From a virus, in the IMG/VR virus record IMGVR_UViG_3300000553_000005, positions 75,817 to 139,816 of that record: a stretch of DNA of 64,000 nt, one strand, 5' to 3'. The position numbers and the translations under genes are program-made. The notes under the pieces were generated by a model that was not told where the DNA came from, did no database searches, and saw only the letters and a list, made by a program, of their open reading frames with translations. Positions 25,120 through 62,718 of the stretch are shown piece after piece (the stretch's first letter is position 1; every line of letters starts with the position of its first letter).

Positions 25120-28100
25120 TTAATTTCTCACTATGTTATGTTCTGTTACTAAATTTCCACCCAAAGTTTTCAAAGCAAATGCCTTGGCTTTTTCTGGATC
25201 AAAATCCTTGCAAGAGAAGACGTTAATGAAAATTTTCTGAAGTTCATCCAAGGCATGAATAGTTATAGAAGATTCGTAAAGGAACTGAACTACGCTGATT
25301 CCATCTTTCTTGGGATGGGTTTTGTAAGTTCCTTCAAACTTATCCTGGCCCCAACTGTAAATTGGTCCTCGCTGCATATCAATTTCATCACAGAGGTCTT
25401 CGGCAAACTTTTTCAAGATGTGGGTCTGGAATTTATCTGGGTCAACATCATGAAGATCCATAATAACCTCTTGGCCGTAATGCTCTTTCTTAGTTTCTTC
25501 AATAATTTCATCGCTATCATCGGCTACCTTTTTAATATAAGTAATGTAGCCCTGCTTGACACTGGCGGCTTTTGAATAGGGAGTGATGGCCGTAACCACT
25601 TCTACTTGCTTCTTACTACGAAGGCCCTGCATAGCCTTATCCCACAAATCTTTGTCCAGTTTGAAAGTTGTGCCTAAGTGGTAAACTTGACCAAATTGGT
25701 CTTCTATATGTTTCTTAAAGCTTCTTAGTGGAGTCATCCCTGAGAGATTTTCTAAGATAAACTCTTGAAGTTCTTCGATGAACTGCTCTCTCGGATAGTA
25801 TTTTTCCATGCCACCATAGGCTTGTTTGATTAGCAGACTCGCTTTTTTAACTGATAATTCTCTCAATTGTTGCTCCGTAATTTGCCTCGTGTCTAAAAGA
25901 ACTTGAAGTGTTGCCTGATAGAATCCAGAGTCAATTCCCATAGTTTCATTTCTTATGGCTCTCTCGGCTATCTTTTCATCGTACATCTGGAAATGAGAAT
26001 CTTCATCCATTCCTAATTTTTTCTGAATATAAGCCATGGTATCATCCATATCCTGCATATAGTAGGAAATGAAGCAGGATACAGCACAAAAAGAGCCTTT
26101 TTTATAATTAATTTCATTTCCCGCTGGTATAGCTTCATGGCAATCTTCACATTTTTGACAGAACCCACCCCTTACCAAAATTTTCTCACGTTCTGCCTCA
26201 AGATCATCATAACCATTGATGTTTAGTTGTTCCTCAATATAGGTTCTAGCTCTCCTCTTTTTATTTTCATCAGCATTCGGCAGAAACTTATCTATTAAAC
26301 GATTTATCGCTGGTCGGAAATACTCCCTTACACAATAACTGCAACAATAGGGATTGCCAGATAAATAGATGGCATCTTCTTCTGCCACAGGCTCATCACA
26401 ATTAGCACAATTGGTTAGCTCCTGATCTTCATGATCTTCATAGAGATCATTATCATTGTTAATATCCCAAGCACCAGGGAAGATAATTTTTTGCTCCATC
26501 GATTCTTTAATCTTCGGATCAAATTCTGCAAGTGTTTCAAAAATCCACCAGTAATTTGAATCTACATCATATTTTTGCCCAACATCAGCACTATCACTAA
26601 ACGGATCCCTACTAAATATCTGATCTCCAATATTTCTACCATCTACATCTTGGCATTCAATAGCACCAACTCCTTGACCTTGAATATTTTTGGTCGGGAC
26701 TCGGATGAGTGCATAGCGATCAGAACCATAATGCTCATTGGTGCCACTGTCCTGAGTAATAACATAGAGAGGACCACGTTCCAGATAGGCTTCAGCGGTC
26801 CCCTCCCCCTGTGTACACCAATGGGAACCTGTTGACATAAGCACCAAGGCTTCTGGAGTGGTACAACGATAGAAGGAGTAACCTCTGGTCTTAGCTAAAG
26901 GCTCACAACCATCTCTGAGATACTTATCCTTCTCTCTAATTAATTCTCTACCCTGCTCATTTTTGGATAGGTCGGCTCTAGTAGCCGTGTCATATATTTC
27001 TTTAAGATCTGAAAGACCTAACTTCATGATATCTTTTTCACCAGTAAAATTAGCACTACGTTTTAGCATAGCATAACGTTCAAGCATAATTTTAATATCA
27101 TCTCGTTTCATTGTTCCGGCTAGCGAAGATCTACCTTCTGGATCATCCATAGCTTTTCTAGTCTCTCTACATAACCATTCTAAATATTCTCCATTTTGAG
27201 AAGGGTCAACTAAAGATAGAGTATCTACCCCATGAGGAGGGAGATGATATTTAGAAGCAAGAGCTTTTTTCTTAGCTTCCGAAGCGGCGGCAAATTTCAA
27301 TAGAGCAGATTTAAAGTTAGAAAGTGAAGATTTCTTCAGTTTTTCAGAAGGTTCAGAGGTAGGTTCCAGTTCATCTGTTGCTATTTCACCCTCTATTTCT
27401 GGTGCTGATTCCTCTTGCACTTTGCCCATTCCACTATTTTCAATAATATCATCAATATCTGTACTCGTAGGGGTGAATTGGTCCTTAACATATTCTAGTA
27501 TGTCATCGTAAAGCGTATCATAAGTCATCAGTTCATCATAAACCGGCTGAAGGACTTTCAAGGCCCATTTATAATCCCCTAGAGTTAATCCGGGGGTCAC
27601 TTTTTCTACTCTGTCACTCTGCCCATTTTCAAAAGCTCTAATACCTGATGTCAGATTAGCTAAATACCAATCAAGAGCATAGTGATGGTTAACAGTATTG
27701 GGGAGACCCATTCGGATAGCTGCTTCATGCATTGCTCTAAATACTTTGGTGGCCTTTGGATCCCAGCCTGTCCCATAAATGAGTTCCTCGGCATCATCCA
27801 TAGCTTTTTGATTTCTTTCTTCTTTTCCTGGAATAGTTGCAACAAATGCCTTTACTTTTTTCTCAATTATATCATTATAAAACTCTTTAAAACATCCCTC
27901 GCAACAAAAATTATGGCTTTCTTTATCAGGGGAGTCATCATTATTCACATAAATAGTATCGTAGCTGTCTGTTTCCATATATGCATCACATTGATCACAT
28001 TTTTCAAAATGAGCCATATCATTAATATCATTAAAAATAAATCCTTCTCGGATATATCTTTCCAAATCCCTATCATAATTAGACAACCATTGAACTATTC

Positions 28101-28830
28101 CCCACCATTCATCATTGACTTGATAACATTTATCTTCAATTTCCCAGTTTCCTATATCCTCACCATCTGCATCTTGAGCTTCAAATCCTGTGACAGAATC
28201 ATCCGGAACATGAATCTGAAGATAGCGATCTGATTCATAAGAACTTTCTTTTTCTTCTGTAGTAAAGACATAAATGGCTCCCCTACTTAAATAACGTTGG
28301 GCATAGCCTGGGTTCTTAGTACACCAATGAGAACCTTCCCCCATCAATTGCACGGCTCTTACAGTAGTCGGCTCATAACATACGACACCTTCACCTGGAC
28401 TGCCGATCTCTTCACAGCCTTCTGCTAAATATTGTTTCCTTCTTCTCTGTAAATCTCTCTCTCGCTCTTTCTTAGAATAGTCATCAGGAGAAGATTCTTG
28501 TATAACACTGATAAGATCGTTAAAATTGGCATAGGAAAGAATATTATTTTTGGGTTTACCATTAATCAAACCTGTAGCCCAGGCAGCACTATTTTTTAAA
28601 CGTCCAAACTCCTCCAGAGCATCTTTTAATTCATCTTGAAGTGCTGGCCCCACATTTTCGTCATGTCTCAAGACTTTTACTAGCCATTCGGTATATTGAC
28701 CGTTTGGAGTTGGATCTATATTCGCACAGATCTCTACGAATCCTTGGGAAACCAAATATTTTTTCTCCAGTGCCTCCTTCTTTGCCTGTGAAGCTGCGGC
28801 TAGAAGACTCAATAAAGTTGACTTGAACAT
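25120..28830 (-). CDS. Multidomain protein: two tandem DP..G.Y..WL/GSHWCT modules, Cys-rich fingers and a C-terminal AdoMet decarboxylase (SpeD-like) domain
   Basis: Internal duplication; the last ~120 aa have YGQEVIMDLH, GIS..LYESSITIH and VFSCK. Confidence 0.75.
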   Translation of the reverse strand: MFKSTLLSLLAAASQAKKEALEKKYLVSQGFVEICANIDPTPNGQYTEWLVKVLRHDENVGPALQDELKDALEEFGRLKNSAAWATGLINGKPKNNILSYANFNDLISVIQESSPDDYSKKERERDLQRRRKQYLAEGCEEIGSPGEGVVCYEPTTVRAVQLMGEGSHWCTKNPGYAQRYLSRGAIYVFTTEEKESSYESDRYLQIHVPDDSVTGFEAQDADGEDIGNWEIEDKCYQVNDEWWGIVQWLSNYDRDLERYIREGFIFNDINDMAHFEKCDQCDAYMETDSYDTIYVNNDDSPDKESHNFCCEGCFKEFYNDIIEKKVKAFVATIPGKEERNQKAMDDAEELIYGTGWDPKATKVFRAMHEAAIRMGLPNTVNHHYALDWYLANLTSGIRAFENGQSDRVEKVTPGLTLGDYKWALKVLQPVYDELMTYDTLYDDILEYVKDQFTPTSTDIDDIIENSGMGKVQEESAPEIEGEIATDELEPTSEPSEKLKKSSLSNFKSALLKFAAASEAKKKALASKYHLPPHGVDTLSLVDPSQNGEYLEWLCRETRKAMDDPEGRSSLAGTMKRDDIKIMLERYAMLKRSANFTGEKDIMKLGLSDLKEIYDTATRADLSKNEQGRELIREKDKYLRDGCEPLAKTRGYSFYRCTTPEALVLMSTGSHWCTQGEGTAEAYLERGPLYVITQDSGTNEHYGSDRYALIRVPTKNIQGQGVGAIECQDVDGRNIGDQIFSRDPFSDSADVGQKYDVDSNYWWIFETLAEFDPKIKESMEQKIIFPGAWDINNDNDLYEDHEDQELTNCANCDEPVAEEDAIYLSGNPYCCSYCVREYFRPAINRLIDKFLPNADENKKRRARTYIEEQLNINGYDDLEAEREKILVRGGFCQKCEDCHEAIPAGNEINYKKGSFCAVSCFISYYMQDMDDTMAYIQKKLGMDEDSHFQMYDEKIAERAIRNETMGIDSGFYQATLQVLLDTRQITEQQLRELSVKKASLLIKQAYGGMEKYYPREQFIEELQEFILENLSGMTPLRSFKKHIEDQFGQVYHLGTTFKLDKDLWDKAMQGLRSKKQVEVVTAITPYSKAASVKQGYITYIKKVADDSDEIIEETKKEHYGQEVIMDLHDVDPDKFQTHILKKFAEDLCDEIDMQRGPIYSWGQDKFEGTYKTHPKKDGISVVQFLYESSITIHALDELQKIFINVFSCKDFDPEKAKAFALKTLGGNLVTEHNIVRN

Positions 28831-43471: not shown

Positions 43472-44392
43472 GTGGTGAAAAACATCTTCACAACTTTGTA
43501 TGGGAGTCATTTGTTCGGCTGTAATGTGGCCGGTTCAGATGAGGACTATAAATCGGTTCATCTGGAAGATCTATCTGATCTTCTCTTTAAGGACACCCAC
43601 GCACTCAATAGCAAGGATGAAACTGGCCCAACCAAAATTGAAACCGAAACCTTCAGTCTTCGCTTCTACCTGAAGATGCTTGCTGGGGGACAGGTTATTG
43701 CCACTGATATGTTCTTTGCTCCCCCACAGTTCTGGAGGGGAGAAGTGTCTCCTCTCTGGAAGGAGATTCAAGCACTAAAGCCTTACGCTATTACTAGAAG
43801 GCTTCATGCCTTCGCTTCCTATGCCAAGAATCAAGCATTTAAGTATGGGAACAAAGGGCTTAAGATCCTGACTGTGCAGAAGGCTATCAAACTTTTGGAG
43901 TCTAACACTAGCTTTGAGAAACTGTGTGAAGAGCTAAAGGGTATGGAAGGTATCAAGTACACCACTGAACATGCGGCTGTGCAGGATATCCGTCACATTG
44001 AAATTTGTGGTAAGGATTGGGGTGAGACTACGGCTTATCATCTGTGGCTCCCGGTTCTCAAAGACCTAGAGGCCCAGTATGGTGAAAGGGCACGTTTGAG
44101 TACCAGGGGTGTTGACCTCAAGGCCCAGTATCAGACCGTCCGTATCACTTCTGAAGCCATTGAGCTACTCTCTACTGGTCATCTGACTTTCCCCAGGGGC
44201 GAGGCCCCTTTGCTGCTCTCTATCCGCAATAATGAGCTTGGGGAAGAGGCTTTGCGTGATTTGGTGGAAAACAAGCTGGCTGAACTTAAGGAGACTGTTC
44301 CCACTGATTCCCTCCCTGAAAAGGCTGATTGGGACAAGCTAAACGATTTTATTTTGTCTGCTGAAAAAGATTTTCTGAAGAAAACTCTGTAA
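43472..44392 (+). CDS. Pol-beta superfamily nucleotidyltransferase (RlaP/T4 NrdC.11-like)
   Basis: GSHLFG...SDED; C-terminal LLSIRN and LPEKAD. Confidence 0.8.
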   Translation: MVKNIFTTLYGSHLFGCNVAGSDEDYKSVHLEDLSDLLFKDTHALNSKDETGPTKIETETFSLRFYLKMLAGGQVIATDMFFAPPQFWRGEVSPLWKEIQALKPYAITRRLHAFASYAKNQAFKYGNKGLKILTVQKAIKLLESNTSFEKLCEELKGMEGIKYTTEHAAVQDIRHIEICGKDWGETTAYHLWLPVLKDLEAQYGERARLSTRGVDLKAQYQTVRITSEAIELLSTGHLTFPRGEAPLLLSIRNNELGEEALRDLVENKLAELKETVPTDSLPEKADWDKLNDFILSAEKDFLKKTL

Positions 44393-46446: not shown

Positions 46447-47933
46447 ATGAACAACGATGAACTAGGTAAATATCTTCAAGCTTACAGGGCGGGGCATAGT
46501 TGGGAAGACCGTTTCCTAGCCCAGCAGATTGAGTTATTTCAAAAAGATCTCAAACATGGAGTTGGAGTTCTTGGCTTGGAATCCTCCACTTCTGAGGATG
46601 TTTACTTCGCTTCTCTTATGGGAATTAAACTCTAATGGATAATCGTATTATGGATATCAAACAATCCAGACCTTACGAACACTCTATTCTTAGTATTTCA
46701 CTAGATACTTCAGGCTTTGACAATGAAGAGGTCGAAGCCGTTCTTTTTTATAAAGAGTATGAGGATCATCCAGATCATCATCATATTTGCCTAAACCGTG
46801 TCGAGGCTTACAAACTATTTGTATGGTTAGAGGATAATATGGATAAATTGACATAAAATAAACTAACAAAATGTTATAATGGAGGAACGTTATGCGTAAA
46901 TTCATTATAACTTGCTTGGCAGTTCCATTTATTATATTTAAAGTAGCTTTTTTATATAAAGATGACTCTCATATTAAACATACTATTGCTATATCACAGG
47001 CAGTTGAACCTACCTATCGAATTTCAGCGCAACTTAATCCTGATTTACGAATTAAAATTTCCGCTGCTCTTTCAGAAATAAACAGAGATGGAACTGTCAC
47101 TCCCATATTTATTTTAAAGACCCCAACTTTTTGAGTATTGATTGTTTTAAAGGAGGGTATCAAATGACTGTCTGGAAATATTGTGAATGTGGTTGTCATG
47201 GCTACGAATGCGGCAAGTATTGGGCCTTTCATGATCTAAGAGGAGATAATCTTTTTCATCTCCATAGAGGACACGGCTGGATTAGTCCAAAATTGGGGGT
47301 TTTTCAAACTGTGGAAGATTGCACAAGACAAATCAGGATTATGGAAGGTCATGATGAAATTGATTTTGAATTGGCAACGATTGAATATGACTATGCAATC
47401 CATCCCGAGGCCATGAAACGTATTCGCTTAATTGTCGATCAACTTAAGGAGAGGTCTATTGCATCCTGAAACCACTCATATCCAGCAAAATCTGAACTTA
47501 GAAGTGGCTCATGGGACTCTCACTAAGACTTATAATCTATGGATCAAGAATCGTTTTTTTCAACTAACTCAACGTGAACTTGACACGTTACACGATGTTC
47601 TTGATAAACATCGAACAAATGAGTCAATTGGCTAAATAAAACGCCTCAAAAATAATTTGCCCAACTTTTGAAAAAGTCCGGTATACTACAGTATCGGAGG
47701 CGTCACCCATGCTTTTCACCTATTCAAGCGTTGAACGGATGAATGAACTGGTCGAGAAGGCCAATAAATCGCTTCGCAAGATTGGAATTTCTGAAATCGT
47801 GATTGATAGTGTAAAGACTCGTAAGGTGCAGGTTGGCGAGAACGCTTTTCTGGAACCCATCTACAAGGGTGAAGGCTTCAGTGAGGCTGAACTTCGTGAT
47901 CTTAGAAATTATTTTGATTTAGTCATCCAATGA
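46447..47933 (+). CDS. Cluster of small hypothetical ORFs (46447-46635, 46635-46856, 46892-47134, ~47164-47469, 47709-47933)
   Basis: Short co-oriented ORFs with RBSs. Confidence 0.45.
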
Positions 47934-47950
47934 ATCAGTATTATCCAAAG

Positions 47951-48236
47951 AAGGCGGTTCTTAAGTCCTGAGAACCTGGAATCGCCAGTTGTGTGTGGGC
48001 CTCAGGAGTCCTATCACGAAAGAGCTTGGACAGGCAATGCTCTTGCACTACTGGCCCCGAAAGGGGCCTTTGGTGGTGATGACAGGTAGGCCAACAACTT
48101 CGGTTGTGAAATCCTGACAGTGGCGAAGAATTGACTGTCCAGAGCCAGTTCAGTCTTCCGGTGGTGGGAGGGTGCGCAACCGACTGCCATTTACGAGCCG
48201 GGAGGGGGAAGGCGAAAGCTCTCCCCCTTCTTTTTT
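47951..48236 (+). ncRNA. Unassigned highly structured RNA with pseudoknots and its own terminator
   Basis: GC-rich and ORF-free; many nested and crossing pairings; GAAA and UUCG tetraloops. Confidence 0.7.
48201..48236 (+). terminator. Rho-independent terminator
   Basis: GAGGGGGA..GCGAAAGC..TCCCCCTTC followed by T6. Confidence 0.8.
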
Positions 48237-48266
48237 AACTTTCTAACCCTATCTTTGAGGGATGCT

Positions 48267-48962
48267 ATGTTTGAATTTGAGGCTGGGTTATTAAAACAAG
48301 GCTACACCATTTGGGGTAAGAGAATATCTCAAAATATTCATTTTCTTCAGCCTGTAATCGACAAGATTGAAGGAAGATTAATTAAACATGGAGTCCCTTA
48401 TCATCATAGTCACGGAGATCTCCCTATAAGTGTAGTAACAGGAAGTTTAGATGGAACCATAACTATCATCCCGTCTGAGGCAACGTCAGATATTAATATT
48501 CTTTCCATTGGAAAGGCTATACCAGGAATGAAAGATGGCCCTCCCAATGACCCGAAAGCTAGATCTATACCGGAAGGGAGTGACGTATATATTCTTACGG
48601 GGGTTAAAATGCTCACGGCCAAAGAATTTGTTGCCACTACTTCCTACGCTATTCTTTGGGGTAAATATAATGATTTGAAGCTTGGAGAACTATCTTTAGA
48701 GGATTGGTCAAAATTGTACAAGACCAAAACTAAGCTTGATTGGGAATTGAGTGAGAAGGAACTAAAAAAACAAACAAAATCTAAAAATTCTTGCTTCAAA
48801 AATTCAAAAATTGGGTATAATAGTGTATCGGAGGAAGACATGGAATGCATTCTTGGTGGGACTTACGAGGATTTGGCCGAAAAGCTTCGGGAAGATGGAA
48901 TGGAAGAAGTTGAAATCAGCAAGCTCATCGCTGAATTGGAAATGGCTGTTGAAGCTGCATAA
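48267..48962 (+). CDS. Hypothetical protein; its 3' part probably overlaps a separate small gene (48840-48962)
   Basis: ATG 48267 after GAGG; internal promoter and GGAGG RBS before 48840. Confidence 0.55.
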   Translation: MFEFEAGLLKQGYTIWGKRISQNIHFLQPVIDKIEGRLIKHGVPYHHSHGDLPISVVTGSLDGTITIIPSEATSDINILSIGKAIPGMKDGPPNDPKARSIPEGSDVYILTGVKMLTAKEFVATTSYAILWGKYNDLKLGELSLEDWSKLYKTKTKLDWELSEKELKKQTKSKNSCFKNSKIGYNSVSEEDMECILGGTYEDLAEKLREDGMEEVEISKLIAELEMAVEAA

Positions 48963-49567: not shown

Positions 49568-49774
49568 ATGCCTTGCCCTTGCCTCCTTGCTGATGAACCT
49601 TGCAGACCTGACTGCTCTTGTGTTAACCCTCTTATGTCTTGCGGCTGTCTTTGTTGCTGCACTTATGGTAGTCCTGAACAACAGAAACGTCAGGCTAATA
49701 GACTGGTCACTAACCAAAAAAGAACTCATGTCTTATGTGTGGGAAAACATGGAGAAGATAATTACTGGGGTTGA
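49568..49774 (+). CDS. Small Cys-rich (metal-binding) protein
   Basis: Ten Cys within the first ~31 residues. Confidence 0.5.
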   Translation: MPCPCLLADEPCRPDCSCVNPLMSCGCLCCCTYGSPEQQKRQANRLVTNQKRTHVLCVGKHGEDNYWG

Positions 49775-50015
49775 GATTTAGCCTTTTTAGTTTCAGATAT
49801 TTTCTTCTTGGTTTCTTCAGAACAACTTACCCCTTTATTCCAAGATGGTTTACCCATTTTAGCCTCAGATATTTTCCTTTTGGTTTCTTCAGTCATTACA
49901 TGCCCTTGAAGACTGTCACTGATATGTTTCTTTTGCTCATCAGTTCTTTTCTTTCCTGTGTTAGCTTTTCCAACTTTCTCTGCATGTTCTTTGGTAATTA
50001 TTTGTTTACTCCTGA
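49762..50015 (-). pseudogene. NUMOD3-repeat relic of a homing endonuclease
   Basis: Minus frame reads ..TDEQKKHISDS..TEETKRKISEAKMGKPSWNKG..SEETKKKISE..*; in-frame stop upstream and no nuclease domain. Confidence 0.75.
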
Positions 50016-50028
50016 AAGGTAGGTTGCT

Positions 50029-51144
50029 ATGCTAGAGGTACAGAAATTTCTTTTGTCCAATACTTTATCGGACCTTAAGGAAAAGTATGCCATCAATTAT
50101 AGGGTGGGTGATATAGAAAGTTTGGTTAGTTTAAATTACAACCAGATTGAGTCTCCTATGGGAGAGAAGATTGTGCAGGAATGCCGACAGCTAATTCTGG
50201 AACTTGATACTTGGAGGGTAGTGTCTATAGCCCTAGACAAATTTTTCAATTACGCAGAACAGAAGTCCCCTGAGTTTGATTGGTCTAGCTTTAAGACTTA
50301 TGAAAAGATTGATGGTTCTCTGATCTCGTTTTTTCACTATAATGGTCAGTGGTATTGTGCTACTCGCTCTGTCCCTGGAGCTAACACTCCAGTTGATGAG
50401 ACTGGTATGACTTTTAAGGATCTGGTCCTTCTTACTTTGAAGGACATGGGGACTTCCTGGGAGGGATTAACCTCTTACATGGAGCCTGGATACACTTATA
50501 TTTGTGAGCTTACTTCTGAAGAGAATAGAGTTGTTTGCCAGTATAATGAGCGTAAATTAACTCTCCTAGCTATTCGTTCTATTCATGAACCTTTTTTCAA
50601 AGAAAATAATTTGGAAATTTGGGAAGGCTATAATCAAGATTTTCCTCTGCCTCTTGTTACTCGTTATGATGGGTTTTCCAAGGAAGCTATCCTGGCTGAA
50701 GTGCAGGAGCGTAACCCCACTGAGCATGAAGGTTATGTGCTGGTGGATAAGAACTTCAATCGGGTTAAGATAAAGAGTAATGCTTACTGCTTAATGAGTT
50801 ATCAACGTGACGGTTTGGGTAAGTCTAACCGTGCCCGACTGGAACTGATCTTCTCTGACAAGGTGGATGACGTTATTGGTCTTCTGCCTAAGTTCGTGCA
50901 GGAGAAGATTCTTTCTCTCCAGACCGCTCTAAATAACCTCGTTCAGAGTATTAATCAGACGTACGCTGAAATAAAGAATATTGAATCACAGAAGGGCTTC
51001 GCTGCCGAAGCTATCAAGTATCGCTATTCGGCTGCACTATTCGCTCTCAGAGGTGGTCGTATCACGGACGCTCTGGAGTGGCTCAAGAGGGCTTCGGTCA
51101 AGAGTGTGCTGGGTTGGTTGCAGGTTGATGAGGAGGAAGAATAA
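50029..51144 (+). CDS. T4 Rnl1-like RNA ligase
   Basis: KFFN, EKIDGS, ATRS, ELTS..NRVV, EGYV and RVKIKS..Y. Confidence 0.92.
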   Translation: MLEVQKFLLSNTLSDLKEKYAINYRVGDIESLVSLNYNQIESPMGEKIVQECRQLILELDTWRVVSIALDKFFNYAEQKSPEFDWSSFKTYEKIDGSLISFFHYNGQWYCATRSVPGANTPVDETGMTFKDLVLLTLKDMGTSWEGLTSYMEPGYTYICELTSEENRVVCQYNERKLTLLAIRSIHEPFFKENNLEIWEGYNQDFPLPLVTRYDGFSKEAILAEVQERNPTEHEGYVLVDKNFNRVKIKSNAYCLMSYQRDGLGKSNRARLELIFSDKVDDVIGLLPKFVQEKILSLQTALNNLVQSINQTYAEIKNIESQKGFAAEAIKYRYSAALFALRGGRITDALEWLKRASVKSVLGWLQVDEEEE

Positions 51145-52021: not shown

Positions 52022-52070
52022 ATTTTTTGCAAGTGAACAAATTTTTGAAATTTCAGTATTAAGATAGAGT

Positions 52071-52181
52071 AGGGCCAAGGATAACAAAAGAACACGCAGT
52101 TGTTGTTACCTCCTTAAAGCAGTACGAAGTTGCAGTTGTCATTTTCAAGCGAAGCACATTAAGATTAAACTTCTTGGCCCT
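52071..52181 (+). ncRNA. Stem-closed RNA unit A (possible Y-like RNA)
   Basis: AGGGCCAAGGA/TTCTTGGCCCT 11-bp closing stem just after the AGTATTA motif. Confidence 0.55.
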
Positions 52182-52191
52182 TCTTTGACAG

Positions 52192-52299
52192 TAGACGCAA
52201 TTCAGCGACATTCCTATTTATGATGCTGAGAGGAGGGGTGGTCGAACCCTCAAAGATAGTTTCCCATTTCGGGTTAGTACCTTCGACCGAAAGCGTCTA
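52192..52299 (+). ncRNA. RNA unit B (divergent repeat member with pseudoknot)
   Basis: TAGACGC/GCGTCTA stem; GAGGG/CCCTC hairpin whose loop GGTCGAA pairs with TTCGACC. Confidence 0.65.
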
Positions 52300-52312
52300 G
52301 TTTTTGTTTTAC

Positions 52313-52385
52313 CCTCTAATTCACGGCAGTCCGTAGAGAGTACGGTGAGAGAAGTCGCCCAAAAAAGGCGAAGCGACATTAGAGG
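52313..52385 (+). ncRNA. RNA unit C
   Basis: CCTCTAAT/ATTAGAGG stem enclosing CCGTA/TACGG and TCGCC/GGCGA hairpins. Confidence 0.55.
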
Positions 52386-52395
52386 TTATTGACAG

Positions 52396-52748
52396 AAGGC
52401 ACACACCAGCAACCCAACCCTTTGACAGTGAGTTAGAGCCCACTCACACTAATAAAAAGCTCAAAAGGTGCCTTGTATTTTTTGTTTTACAGGTTTGTGT
52501 GATCCTGTTCAAATCACATTCACTATTCTTGAGACACACACCAGCAACCCAATCGTAGGGGAAACTCTACATCGTATAGTTAAGCCGCAGTGAGACTTAA
52601 CAAACAGGTTTGTGCGATCCTGTTCAAATCGCTCAAAGGTGTCTCGCCTTTTGTCGATAAGACACACACCAGCAACCCAAAATCTTACAAGGTTACTTGT
52701 ACCGAGTGGTTGGATACGCCACGTTAACTTGTGTCCAAAAGGTGTCTT
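52396..52748 (+). repeat. Three repeat RNA units D (52396-52474), E (52531-52645) and F (52659-52748)
   Basis: Invariant CACACACCAGCAACCCAA; covarying 7-bp closing stems; variable pseudoknot interiors. Confidence 0.85.
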
Positions 52749-52789
52749 GCTTTTTGTCCCATCGTGGGACCATTCATAGGAGAACGACA

Positions 52790-54253
52790 ATGACCAACCA
52801 GCTAATCGCCGCCCTCAAGACTTCACAGAACGTGACCTTCACTGAAAATGGTGCTGTGTCTAATGAAACTACGTTTAGTGATATTCTCGATCTGTTTTAT
52901 CACGCCCCTGCTCGTAGGGGTCAGGATAACACCGACCTCTTCAAGAAGGCGATGGCCGAAGATCATCAGACTGCGGTTCGTGCGTTGTTCTACATTCGTG
53001 ACATTCGTGGTGGACAGGGTGAGCGTGAAACGTTCCGCCAGGGACTTCGTTTCCTCCATGCCAACTACCCCGCTATTTTCAATGCGGTTATCTCTCTGGT
53101 GCCTGAGTATGGCCGTTGGGATGACGTTATTGAATACGTGCATGACAAGGGTGTACAGCAGCTTGTGGCTACCCAGCTATCGGCTGACTCCATTTCTGAC
53201 AAGTCTGTCTCTCTTTTGGCTAAGTGGATGCCTTCGGTGAACACTTCCAGCAAGAAGACCAAGGCTCTGGCCCACAAGTGGCTCAAGGTGCTTGGCCTGA
53301 CTGAGCGTGAGTATCGTAAGGTACTGTCTCGTCTTCGCGCTAGGACCGATGTTACTGAGGTCAAAATGTCTGCTCGTACCTGGTCTGCCATTAACTACTC
53401 TAGGGTAGCTTCTAAGGCCAGCTTGCGCTATCGCACTGCTTTCCACAAGCACGATGGCTCCCGCTACACCAGCTTCCTTGAGGCTGCTGTCAAGGGCGAG
53501 GTGAAGATCAACTCTGCCACTCTCTACCCTTACGATCTGACTGGGAAGTATCTTGGTTTCGGTATTTTCGGCTCCAATGGTACCCTGGACATGACCGTTG
53601 AGGCTCAGTGGAAGCAGCTTCCTAACTATTGCGCTACTGACACTAACGCTCTAGTGGTCTGCGATACCTCTGGCTCCATGTATGGTGGACTTCCCGGTGC
53701 CCCCTCTCCTATCTCTGTAGCTGTGTCTCTGGCACTCTACATCTCCGAAAGGAACCAGGGTGCTTTCAAGGATCACTTCATCACTTTCTCCGACCAGCCC
53801 AAGCTCCAGCGCATCAAGGGTACCACTCTGTTCGATAGGTGCAACTCCCTGAAGCAAGCCAATTGGGGTATGAACACCAATCTTCAGGGTGTGTTCGATA
53901 CCATTCTGTCCACTGCTGTTCGTGGTCGCATCCCCCAGGCTGAGATGCCTTCGGCTCTCTTCATCGTGTCGGATATGGAGTTTGACTCCTGCTGCGATAC
54001 TCATACTAACTTTGATCACATCAAAGCTAAGTATGCTGCGGCTGGCTACACCATGCCCAAGCTGGTGTTCTGGAACGTGAACTCGCGCAATATGCAGACT
54101 CCCGTTACCATGGACGAGAAGGGAACCTATCTAGTTTCGGGTTGCTCCCCCACCATCTTTGCCAAGGCCATCAATACTCAGGCTACTACACCCATACAGA
54201 TGATGCTGGAAACATTAAATGGCCCTCGCTACGAGAAGATTGTAGTTGCTTAA
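52790..54253 (+). CDS. DUF2828-family protein (TROVE/Ro60-like helical domain plus vWA)
   Basis: TENGA, RDIRGGQGER, YGRWDD, LAKWMPS, LYPYD, DTSGSM, SDMEFD and VFWNV; AGGAG RBS. Confidence 0.88.
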   Translation: MTNQLIAALKTSQNVTFTENGAVSNETTFSDILDLFYHAPARRGQDNTDLFKKAMAEDHQTAVRALFYIRDIRGGQGERETFRQGLRFLHANYPAIFNAVISLVPEYGRWDDVIEYVHDKGVQQLVATQLSADSISDKSVSLLAKWMPSVNTSSKKTKALAHKWLKVLGLTEREYRKVLSRLRARTDVTEVKMSARTWSAINYSRVASKASLRYRTAFHKHDGSRYTSFLEAAVKGEVKINSATLYPYDLTGKYLGFGIFGSNGTLDMTVEAQWKQLPNYCATDTNALVVCDTSGSMYGGLPGAPSPISVAVSLALYISERNQGAFKDHFITFSDQPKLQRIKGTTLFDRCNSLKQANWGMNTNLQGVFDTILSTAVRGRIPQAEMPSALFIVSDMEFDSCCDTHTNFDHIKAKYAAAGYTMPKLVFWNVNSRNMQTPVTMDEKGTYLVSGCSPTIFAKAINTQATTPIQMMLETLNGPRYEKIVVA

Positions 54254-61605: not shown

Positions 61606-62718
61606 GTGATTAGTTTTGATATTAAATCCTTGCCACTCTGTATTCTGGAGGAATTAGAACAAATGGCGAAGCCTCATGATTCAAATGCTACGTTTCGTTT
61701 CGTAGGGGGTTGTGTACGTGACACTATTCTGGGCCGTAAGCCTAAGGATTTTGATATCGTCACCAATACTACGGCTGATACGTTAGAGAAAATGGGTTTG
61801 GAGAATGTGGGTAAATTTTTCCCCGTCTACTTGCATAATACCAATTATGGTCACATTGAAGTTGCTGTGGCTCGTTCCGAAGAGAAAGTGGGAGCAGGGC
61901 ATAAAGGATTTGTCACTACCCCTACTGGCAACTATGAAGATGATCGTGTTCGCCGTGATTTGACCATGAACGCGATGATGGTGGATGCGGCTGGAACTTT
62001 GTACGGCTGGGAAGTTGGCTACGAGGCCATTGCTGCTAAAACCATGGAGCAAGTTTCCAATAAGTTTGCAGAGGACCCCCTGCGCGTTCTCAGAGTGGCT
62101 CGTTTCGCTGCTCAACTAGGTGCTGATTGGACGGTTAGCCCTCGACTGGTTAAGACTATGTGGCAAATGCAACCTGAACTAGCTACACTCCCTCCTGATA
62201 GGGTGCGAGAGGAGTTGAAGAAGGTCTTTGCATCGATGGCCCCTCATCGTTTCTTTGAGGTTCTGAAGGCTTCCGATTGTCTGTCCCCCTGGTTCCCCGG
62301 ATTGACACAGAACTTTCATGTTGTAACTTCTATGATCTCTTATGGTGCAACTAATAATTGGACTTTTGAGCAATTCATGATTGGTATTGGTGCTGTTACC
62401 GATCCAGATTTCCTAATTCACTTGGGAGTTGGCAAAGCTGAAAGAAAAGCTGTTCATTATCTTCAAATTTATAAAGAGAAGATGAAGAAGGCTAGACAGT
62501 GTGATTCCTTCACTCTGGTTCAAATAGTCAAGTGTAGTTGCGGAATTCTGTCTTTGGAACAACTCTTGGATTGTGTTCTTATGGATAATTATGCTGATTC
62601 TAAGGATTACATCCTGAAGTGCCAGGATGCTATAAAGGCTGTTGATATGAATGGGGTGACAGGAGTTGATGACGCTATGGCGCGTATGGATATGGCCGTA
62701 ACGAAAGTAAGCAAGTAG
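61606..62718 (+). CDS. cca: tRNA nucleotidyltransferase (CCA-adding, class II)
   Basis: VGGCVRD..LG..PKDFD, RRDLTMNA and EDPLRVLRVARF. Confidence 0.92.
   Translation: MISFDIKSLPLCILEELEQMAKPHDSNATFRFVGGCVRDTILGRKPKDFDIVTNTTADTLEKMGLENVGKFFPVYLHNTNYGHIEVAVARSEEKVGAGHKGFVTTPTGNYEDDRVRRDLTMNAMMVDAAGTLYGWEVGYEAIAAKTMEQVSNKFAEDPLRVLRVARFAAQLGADWTVSPRLVKTMWQMQPELATLPPDRVREELKKVFASMAPHRFFEVLKASDCLSPWFPGLTQNFHVVTSMISYGATNNWTFEQFMIGIGAVTDPDFLIHLGVGKAERKAVHYLQIYKEKMKKARQCDSFTLVQIVKCSCGILSLEQLLDCVLMDNYADSKDYILKCQDAIKAVDMNGVTGVDDAMARMDMAVTKVSK

Follow-up and report, generated by a model that had tools for sequence, protein, structure and literature searches.

What does a GC-rich stretch of about 285 nt, free of open reading frames (ORFs), do between two genes of a phage sampled from freshwater lakes? 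The stretch, hereafter the element, occupies positions 47935-48236 on the plus strand of the window analysed here, which is the final 64 kb (64,000 nt) of a 139.8-kb IMG/VR virus record (IMGVR_UViG_3300000553_000005); at that length the record is estimated to be 49% complete, and the phage is therefore taken to be a jumbo phage. The element is flanked upstream by a 74-aa ORF with its end at 47933 and downstream by a 231-aa ORF, here called gene X, whose ATG lies at 48267. Ten further contigs of this phage, which are identical across the element and thus uninformative on variation, have no gene called across these 334 nt. An earlier note on this DNA had described a GC-rich island, and this is borne out by a GC content of 0.555 at 48000-48199 compared with 0.40 for the genome, in the rest of which no second copy was found. 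As set out below, the element is very probably a genuine, conserved and structured non-coding unit that represents a new small family, and the more difficult question is what such a unit would be for.

The evidence for an RNA begins with folding. The plus strand has a minimum free energy (MFE) of -123.1 kcal/mol (z -3.49), which beats 200 of 200 dinucleotide shuffles, whereas the minus strand reaches a z of only -1.32, such that the strong fold is confined to the plus strand; in a GC-corrected fold scan of the whole genome, the 300-nt segment starting at 47985 ranks fourth among 1396. Hairpins capped by a stable tetraloop (at least 5 pairs, GNRA or UNCG loop) occur 33 times in 140 kb, with two of them inside the element. 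Short complementarities taken one at a time carry little information: the element holds 15 complementary perfect 6-mer pairs where shuffles hold 8.4 +/- 3.6 (28 of 500 reach 15), and three 7-mer pairs where 2.3 are expected, and individual pairings of 6-7 bp are no more than chance.

Contigs from three of four lake metatranscriptomes cover the element (47982-48197, 48051-48243 and 47983-48154) at a depth of 3-6, which is no higher than that of the adjoining genes and may include DNA carry-over, so that they show presence in RNA libraries and neither ends nor abundance. In the same vein, positions 48314-48715 are without RNA contig cover in all four runs, a gap that we do not take as evidence of termination. 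One low-depth RNA contig carries a G>T change at 48076, which is probably an error or a strain variant.

Comparative evidence comes from L067, an ENA lake contig that is syntenic with the window and was reached via the DUF3228 gene upstream of the element, whose relative on L067 is 81% identical. The homologue of the element (L067:12710-12956) is recognised by a single-sequence covariance model, R1, with 82.8 bits (E 7e-27), folds by itself with a z of -4.26 and has nothing relevant in Rfam. Seven indels separate the two cores (7, 1, 3, 1, 3, 2 and 1 nt), and no ORF common to both was found. The upstream side differs more grossly, in that the 393-aa and 125-aa genes, which are intact and 1.9 kb apart in L067 (10532-12690), are represented in this phage by the 74-aa ORF, which seems to have arisen through a 1.9-kb deletion that joined the start of the former to the end of the latter. 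On the downstream side, the gene X proteins of the two lineages share 29% identity and their genes 46%; set against identities of 68% for the core and 93% for the leader in front of gene X, these values lead us to take the core to be under selection.

It could be argued that the element has no RNA function at all, being a GC-rich spacer or the relic of a decayed gene or mobile element whose likeness to L067 reflects recent common descent. The core is indeed no more similar than the adjoining conserved genes (66-73% identical), the long form of the RNA is known from two sequences only (this phage and L067), and single pairings are at chance level, as noted above. However, gene X immediately next to it has drifted much further than the core, the 11 double changes described below leave no pair broken, both sequences beat their shuffles, a GNRA loop has been kept as a GNRA loop, and the flanking motif and terminator are conserved, and we consider an element without function quite unlikely.

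The structure that the two sequences have in common was derived with RNAalifold (Table 1). Its consensus energy of -84.9 compares with -48.2 +/- 4.6 in column shuffles, none of 200 being as low. Covariation, counted on the same two sequences from which the fold was built, amounts to 10 compensatory pairs (5.6 +/- 2.2 in shuffles, 8 of 200 reaching 10) when a candidate contact between the loops of P1 and P2a is left out; with that contact included there are 11 double-changed pairs (5.6 +/- 1.7 in shuffles, 0 of 500 reaching 11; 0-3 with slid partners), and 148 of 148 cells are paired (100%) with none broken. The double changes are spread over P1 and P6 (three each) and P2a, P4, P5, the terminator and the loop-loop contact (one each), and the contact itself keeps all five pairs in L067, one of them by a change from A-U to G-C. 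P1 and P6 also appear in the MFE fold of the L067 homologue by itself, and the P4 loop reads GAAA in this phage and GUAA in L067. The consensus fold does lie far above the MFE of either sequence (-96.6 vs -123.1 for the element and -89.7 vs -116.0 for L067), and covariation is no test of P2, P3 and P7 because these helices never vary.

Table 1. Features of the element and its surroundings (window coordinates).
Feature	Position	Strand	Remarks
RlaP-like nucleotidyltransferase	43472-44392		marginal Pfam score
DUF3228 protein	1.6 kb upstream of element
Upstream 74-aa ORF	47709-47933	+	fusion of 5' end of 393-aa gene and 3' end of 125-aa gene
Promoter-like motif TCAGTATTA	47935-47943	+	TCAGTAATA in L067, TCAGTATTA in L081
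Structured RNA core	47950-48199	+	fold z, L067 homologue, non-triplet indels, no common ORF
P1 hairpin	47953-47986 (47953-61 with 47978-86)	+	16-nt loop; 3 double and 3 single changes, 0 broken
Candidate loop-loop contact	47967-48006	+	CCUGA 47967-71 (P1 loop) with UCAGG 48002-06 (P2a loop)
P2 and P2a	47989-48019	+	P2 47989-93 with 48015-19, invariant; P2a 47997-48000 with 48008-11, 7-nt loop, 1 double and 2 single changes
P3, possible domain-closing helix	48024-48198	+	GCUUG 48024-28 with CGAGC 48194-98; RNAalifold prediction, invariant, unproven
P4 hairpin, GNRA loop	48046-48075	+	11 pairs kept, 1 double change
P5 variable arm	48090-48124	+	UUCG hairpin of this phage lost in L067
P6 hairpin	48128-48158	+	conserved loop motif AGAGCC; 3 double changes
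P7 hairpin	48160-48188	+	GGUGGU.GG with CC.ACUGCC; invariant in both sequences
Intrinsic terminator	48200-48236	+	13-pair G/C-rich stem, GAAA loop, U-tract; -23.0 kcal/mol
Leader with Shine-Dalgarno GAGGGA	48237-48266	+	28/30 identical (93%) in L067
Gene X, 231 aa	48267-48962	+	no Pfam or PHROG family
T4 Rnl1-like ligase	50029-51144
DUF2828/DUF7788 protein	52790-54253		phrog_850, 'RNA-binding protein'
CCA-adding enzyme	61606-62718

This fold departs from the multi-pseudoknot architecture drawn in the earlier note, whose quoted motifs are all where it had placed them (AGTATTA 47937, CGGTTC 47955, TCCTGAG 47966, GAACCTGG 47972, TCGCCA 47982, CTCAGGA 48001, AAGAGC 48020, TGGACAG 48027, GCTCTT 48039, GGCCCC-GAAA-GGGGCC 48053, TTCG 48099, TGGCGA 48121, CTGTCCA 48135, CCAGTTC 48145 and GAGCCG 48195). 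The idea of a strand-specific structured non-coding RNA stands, given the z confined to the plus strand and the pair-preserving substitutions in L067. The three proposed long-range helices do not: CGGTTC/GAGCCG loses two of six pairs in L067, GAAC(C)TGG/CCAGTTC four of seven and TCGCCA/TGGCGA three of six, and their strands pair locally in P1 and P6 instead. The UUCG hairpin (three of five pairs lost) and the second pseudoknot, TGGACAG/CTGTCCA (two of seven lost), go the same way, while the GGCCCC hairpin is kept with its loop still of the GNRA type. Two further pairings survive in part. The AAGAGC/GCTCTT hairpin retains five of six pairs in L067, with one double change, but competes with P3, the two being mutually exclusive; the first crossing pairing, TCCTGAG/CTCAGGA, is retained in its central five pairs, as the P1-P2a contact, but not in its outer ones. 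With these helix losses the architecture as drawn is not confirmed, and the complexity that had been offered as a sign of a ribozyme is accompanied by neither a ribozyme family match nor any catalytic feature that we could find.

Is the element, then, a diverged member of a class already described, such as a group I intron, tmRNA, RNase P RNA, Y RNA/YrlA, GOLLD/ROOL or riboswitch? The region is rich in RNA-metabolism genes, relatives of a Ro60-like protein encoded downstream are found beside tRNA arrays and in one case a tmRNA, and the GNRA loops and the multi-helix junction would suit several of these classes. Searches with known families speak against it. Rfam 15 gave no match on the window at gathering scores, and at E up to 10 only Histone3 (minus strand, 21.3 of 34 bits) and mir-1249 were reported, the wrong-strand match being a 42-nt hairpin; ARAGORN called no tRNA or tmRNA gene in the window. 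The description of the element as an orphan thus holds in so far as the Infernal/Rfam-type check assigns it to no known RNA family, but not in the sense of having no relative, since the L067 lineage is homologous.

Individual classes were also considered and set aside. For a group I intron, there is no Intron_gpI match and no spliced joint in the RNA contigs, and gene X is furnished with a conserved Shine-Dalgarno sequence and an ATG of its own, as are those of its relatives that lack the RNA. Y RNAs and YrlA RNAs are described as 80-130 nt long, encoded within 4 kb of a Ro60 orthologue on the same strand and equipped with a tRNA-like domain (PMC4201824). The element is on the same strand as the Ro60-like gene, but its length and the absence of a tRNA-like part do not fit, no Y_RNA match was obtained, and its end at 48236 lies 4.55 kb before the start of that gene at 52790. 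Look-alikes of the hammerhead, the T-loop, group II domain 5 and conserved regions of RNase P RNA, as well as a K-turn look-alike (box C/D-like GUGAUGA with CUGA), were judged by eye either to misfit or not to be kept in L067. Overall, a diverged known class is very improbable indeed.

Further copies of the RNA were sought widely. No match was obtained by blastn of the element against 50,697 phage records, nor by blastn, nhmmer and the covariance models R1 and R2 against 31 loci around DUF2828 genes; the element was likewise not found in five portal relatives (two of them complete genomes) or around the genes for more distant DUF3228 relatives and for relatives of gene X. Among viral contigs, no relatives of the two flanking proteins and Rnl1 were found, and in a word-indexed protein search the 231-aa and 101-aa neighbours each matched only themselves. 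Six matches in a hairpin DNA-pattern scan were unrelated terminator-like hairpins, a DNA-pattern match in a high-GC phage was a Gly-rich coding region, and the other DNA-pattern scans of viral, metagenome and genome contigs came back empty. A weak R1 match in L065, with matching ends, lies inside a 235-aa ORF and is ascribed to chance.

If the element is transcribed as a unit, where would its transcript begin and end? At its 5' side lies AGTATTA, and the earlier note's picture of an element flanked by a promoter-like motif and an intrinsic terminator is upheld, with the motif also recurring before other genes. Across the genome AGTATTA occurs 35 times on the plus and 20 times on the minus strand, the expectation being 21 for each; its enrichment in intergenic DNA is 3.4-fold, and in at least 13 genes it precedes the Shine-Dalgarno sequence by 13-21 nt. 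L067 and L081, a more distant contig, retain the motif as TCAGTA(T/A)TA immediately behind the stop codons of upstream genes that differ, such that it has been kept behind three different upstream gene ends. This recurrence and conservation argue that the motif is a functional signal, most simply a promoter element, although it may alternatively be a processing site; a simple sigma-70 scan listed no promoter at the element. A genome-wide survey of -10-like motif classes found intergenic enrichments of about 6-fold for GGTATAAT and of 3.4 to 4.8-fold for AGTATTA/GTATTAA.

At the 3' side, the terminator is one of 11 strong plus-strand terminators in 140 kb and was missed by a simple terminator scan because its stem contains a 1x1 internal loop. 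It is kept in L067 (-17.3), with one double and two single changes, and in L081. The leader that follows is recognisable in L081 and L080 as well as in L067; within it, CCCU and AGGG could pair into a small hairpin that covers the Shine-Dalgarno sequence. Gene X itself has eight relatives besides itself among 1.84 billion representatives, a profile of both gene X proteins found seven further representatives, and the ESM Atlas returned nothing usable.

What lies upstream of the gene varies among these relatives. The gene X relative of L081 is preceded by the same motif, then by a G-rich terminator and a leader resembling that of this phage, but the hairpin that separates motif from terminator there is only about 45 nt long (the short unit lies at L081 2375-2500); an 88-nt stretch of L081, running from just after the motif through the U-tract, has a z of -3.83. 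At least 24 contigs carry the L081 relative of gene X (P0128), and L081's gene neighbourhood recurs in 10 other places. In L080 and the P0125 contig the gene X relative starts about 30 nt after the end of an upstream ORF, leaving no unit at all. The long form of the unit is thus found in two lineages, the short form in one and none in two. Because these three distant relatives of gene X have a short RNA or no unit, the RNA is separable from gene X, and the 250-nt core is best regarded as an accessory of one lineage and not as an obligatory leader.

The arrangement nevertheless invites a cis-acting interpretation, not raised in the earlier note, in which the structured RNA is a 5' leader that sets the balance between stopping at the terminator and reading through into gene X. 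It would do so by attenuation that depends on a factor or ligand, or else by modifying the polymerase in the manner of put/EAR antitermination RNAs. The order expected of an attenuator, a folded leader followed by an intrinsic terminator and then a gene, is present at the element, and the full series of motif, RNA, terminator, 30-nt leader, Shine-Dalgarno sequence and gene X recurs in this phage (G000), in L067 and, with the short RNA, in L081. There is no other promoter-like motif between the terminator and gene X, the leader is far better conserved than the gene it serves, and the link to gene X has been retained in L067 despite the 1.9-kb indel on the upstream side. On the other hand, no pairing was found that competes with the -23 kcal/mol terminator: with the 3' strand of the terminator blocked, its 5' strand has no stable partner, and the anti-terminator candidates are limited to 4-5 bp. 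Complementarity between core and leader is no greater than with shuffled leaders, no riboswitch, T-box or leader family matches, the core is replaced by the short hairpin in L081 and missing with the rest of the unit in L080 and the P0125 contig, and the genome has other terminators whose following gene lacks a promoter motif. A cis-acting attenuator of gene X is a serious possibility, held at roughly one chance in three in our judgement, and nearly as likely as the alternative that we favour.

That alternative is a discrete, terminated RNA acting in trans within a phage RNA-repair island, a reading that we prefer while giving it somewhat less than an even chance. Transcription would start a few bases after TCAGTATTA, near 47950; the RNA would fold into two 5' hairpins whose loops probably touch, with a 3' domain of several hairpins (P4 to P7) behind them; and the terminator would end the transcript to give a discrete RNA of about 285 nt, with a minority of read-through continuing into gene X. 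The released RNA may then act as a protein-binding or scaffold RNA of the RNA-repair or RNA-quality-control island. The discrete ends of this RNA, its action in trans and its link to the repair proteins are, like the promoter role of the motif, inferred. Two observations weigh against action in trans: the Ro60-like gene is several kilobases away on the downstream side and is itself immediately preceded by another ORF-free stretch, and the motif, RNA, terminator, leader and gene X occur together in three lineages, which fits a cis-acting leader equally well.

The island comprises the RlaP-like nucleotidyltransferase, the Rnl1-like ligase, the DUF2828/DUF7788 protein and the CCA-adding enzyme of Table 1, and jumbo-phage RNA-repair sets of a comparable kind have been described (PMC7824862). 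The AlphaFold model of the DUF2828 protein (pLDDT 84, pTM 0.82) has the full-length Ro60 fold (TROVE plus vWA), in that the top 12 Foldseek matches are all full-length Ro60/TROVE proteins (TM up to 0.62, E 3e-8). Of 31 viral loci with a relative of this protein, 25 have tRNA genes no more than about 10 kb away from it, the relative frequently being embedded in a tRNA array or adjacent to one; in L031 a relative immediately precedes a tmRNA. In the window, the 735 nt directly upstream of the Ro60-like gene (52055-52790) are without a called gene and open with AGTATTA; model R2 found no similarity there to the element RNA, and this stretch is a better candidate for a Y-RNA-like molecule than the element.

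Other features of the surroundings are recorded here for completeness. In the region 6-13 kb before the window (G000 C1 63047-69679), ARAGORN and Rfam make five tRNA calls each, four of which coincide to give six loci; many short GC-rich, ORF-free gaps are present, and Rfam finds tRNAs only. A 44-aa ORF with a NUMOD3 motif on the minus strand (about 49760-49896), called in sister contigs, is possibly the remnant of a homing endonuclease. Farther away, the last ~120 residues of a 1236-aa protein (25120-28830, minus strand) match S-adenosylmethionine decarboxylase (phrog_3125).

What emerges is a folded, conserved and well-delimited RNA of about 285 nt that belongs to no known family and sits in an island of RNA-repair genes, a modest claim in that the evidence rests on two sequences. 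To our knowledge, the RNA partners of jumbo-phage RNA-repair genes are largely unknown. If the RNA acts in trans, it would be a new RNA for the biology of phage RNA quality control or counter-defence; a role in cis would make it a new, large leader with control over a promoter-proximal terminator. More speculatively, and with a chance that we put as low though not negligible, it could be a new phage ribonucleoprotein component that works with the Ro60-like, ligase and nucleotidyltransferase set or with the rapidly evolving gene X protein, as a scaffold or as a decoy against host defences that target RNA, and so a counterpart in function to the Y RNAs, built on an unrelated architecture.

Several known systems offer points of comparison. 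With riboswitches, T-box RNAs, HK022 put and EAR the element has in common a promoter-proximal folded RNA that leads into an intrinsic terminator and a gene; unlike terminator-based leaders, it comes with no anti-terminator that we could find and no Rfam leader or riboswitch match, and its core is dispensable in relatives of the gene. The put RNAs are about 70 nt long and consist of two stem-loops. GOLLD and ROOL are large, ornate, phage-borne RNAs with many helices that constitute Rfam families and occur in genomes with tRNA clusters; the element resembles them in being phage-encoded, in its many helices and in the tRNA clusters of its genome, but they are two to three times longer and their Rfam models give no match here. 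Phage T4 makes small stable RNAs (species 1 and 2, also RNA C and D) that are processed from a tRNA cluster transcript. Compared by description, these share with the element the character of a discrete phage-encoded RNA, a discreteness that is presumed in the case of the element, yet they are shorter and are cut from the tRNA cluster transcript. Finally, the bacterial and phage Y RNAs (YrlA/Yrn1; partners of Ro60/Rsr) differ from the element, which is longer, farther from the Ro60-like gene and without a tRNA-like domain, but both are structured RNAs encoded on the same strand as a Ro60-fold protein, in a repair cluster that contains an RNA ligase.
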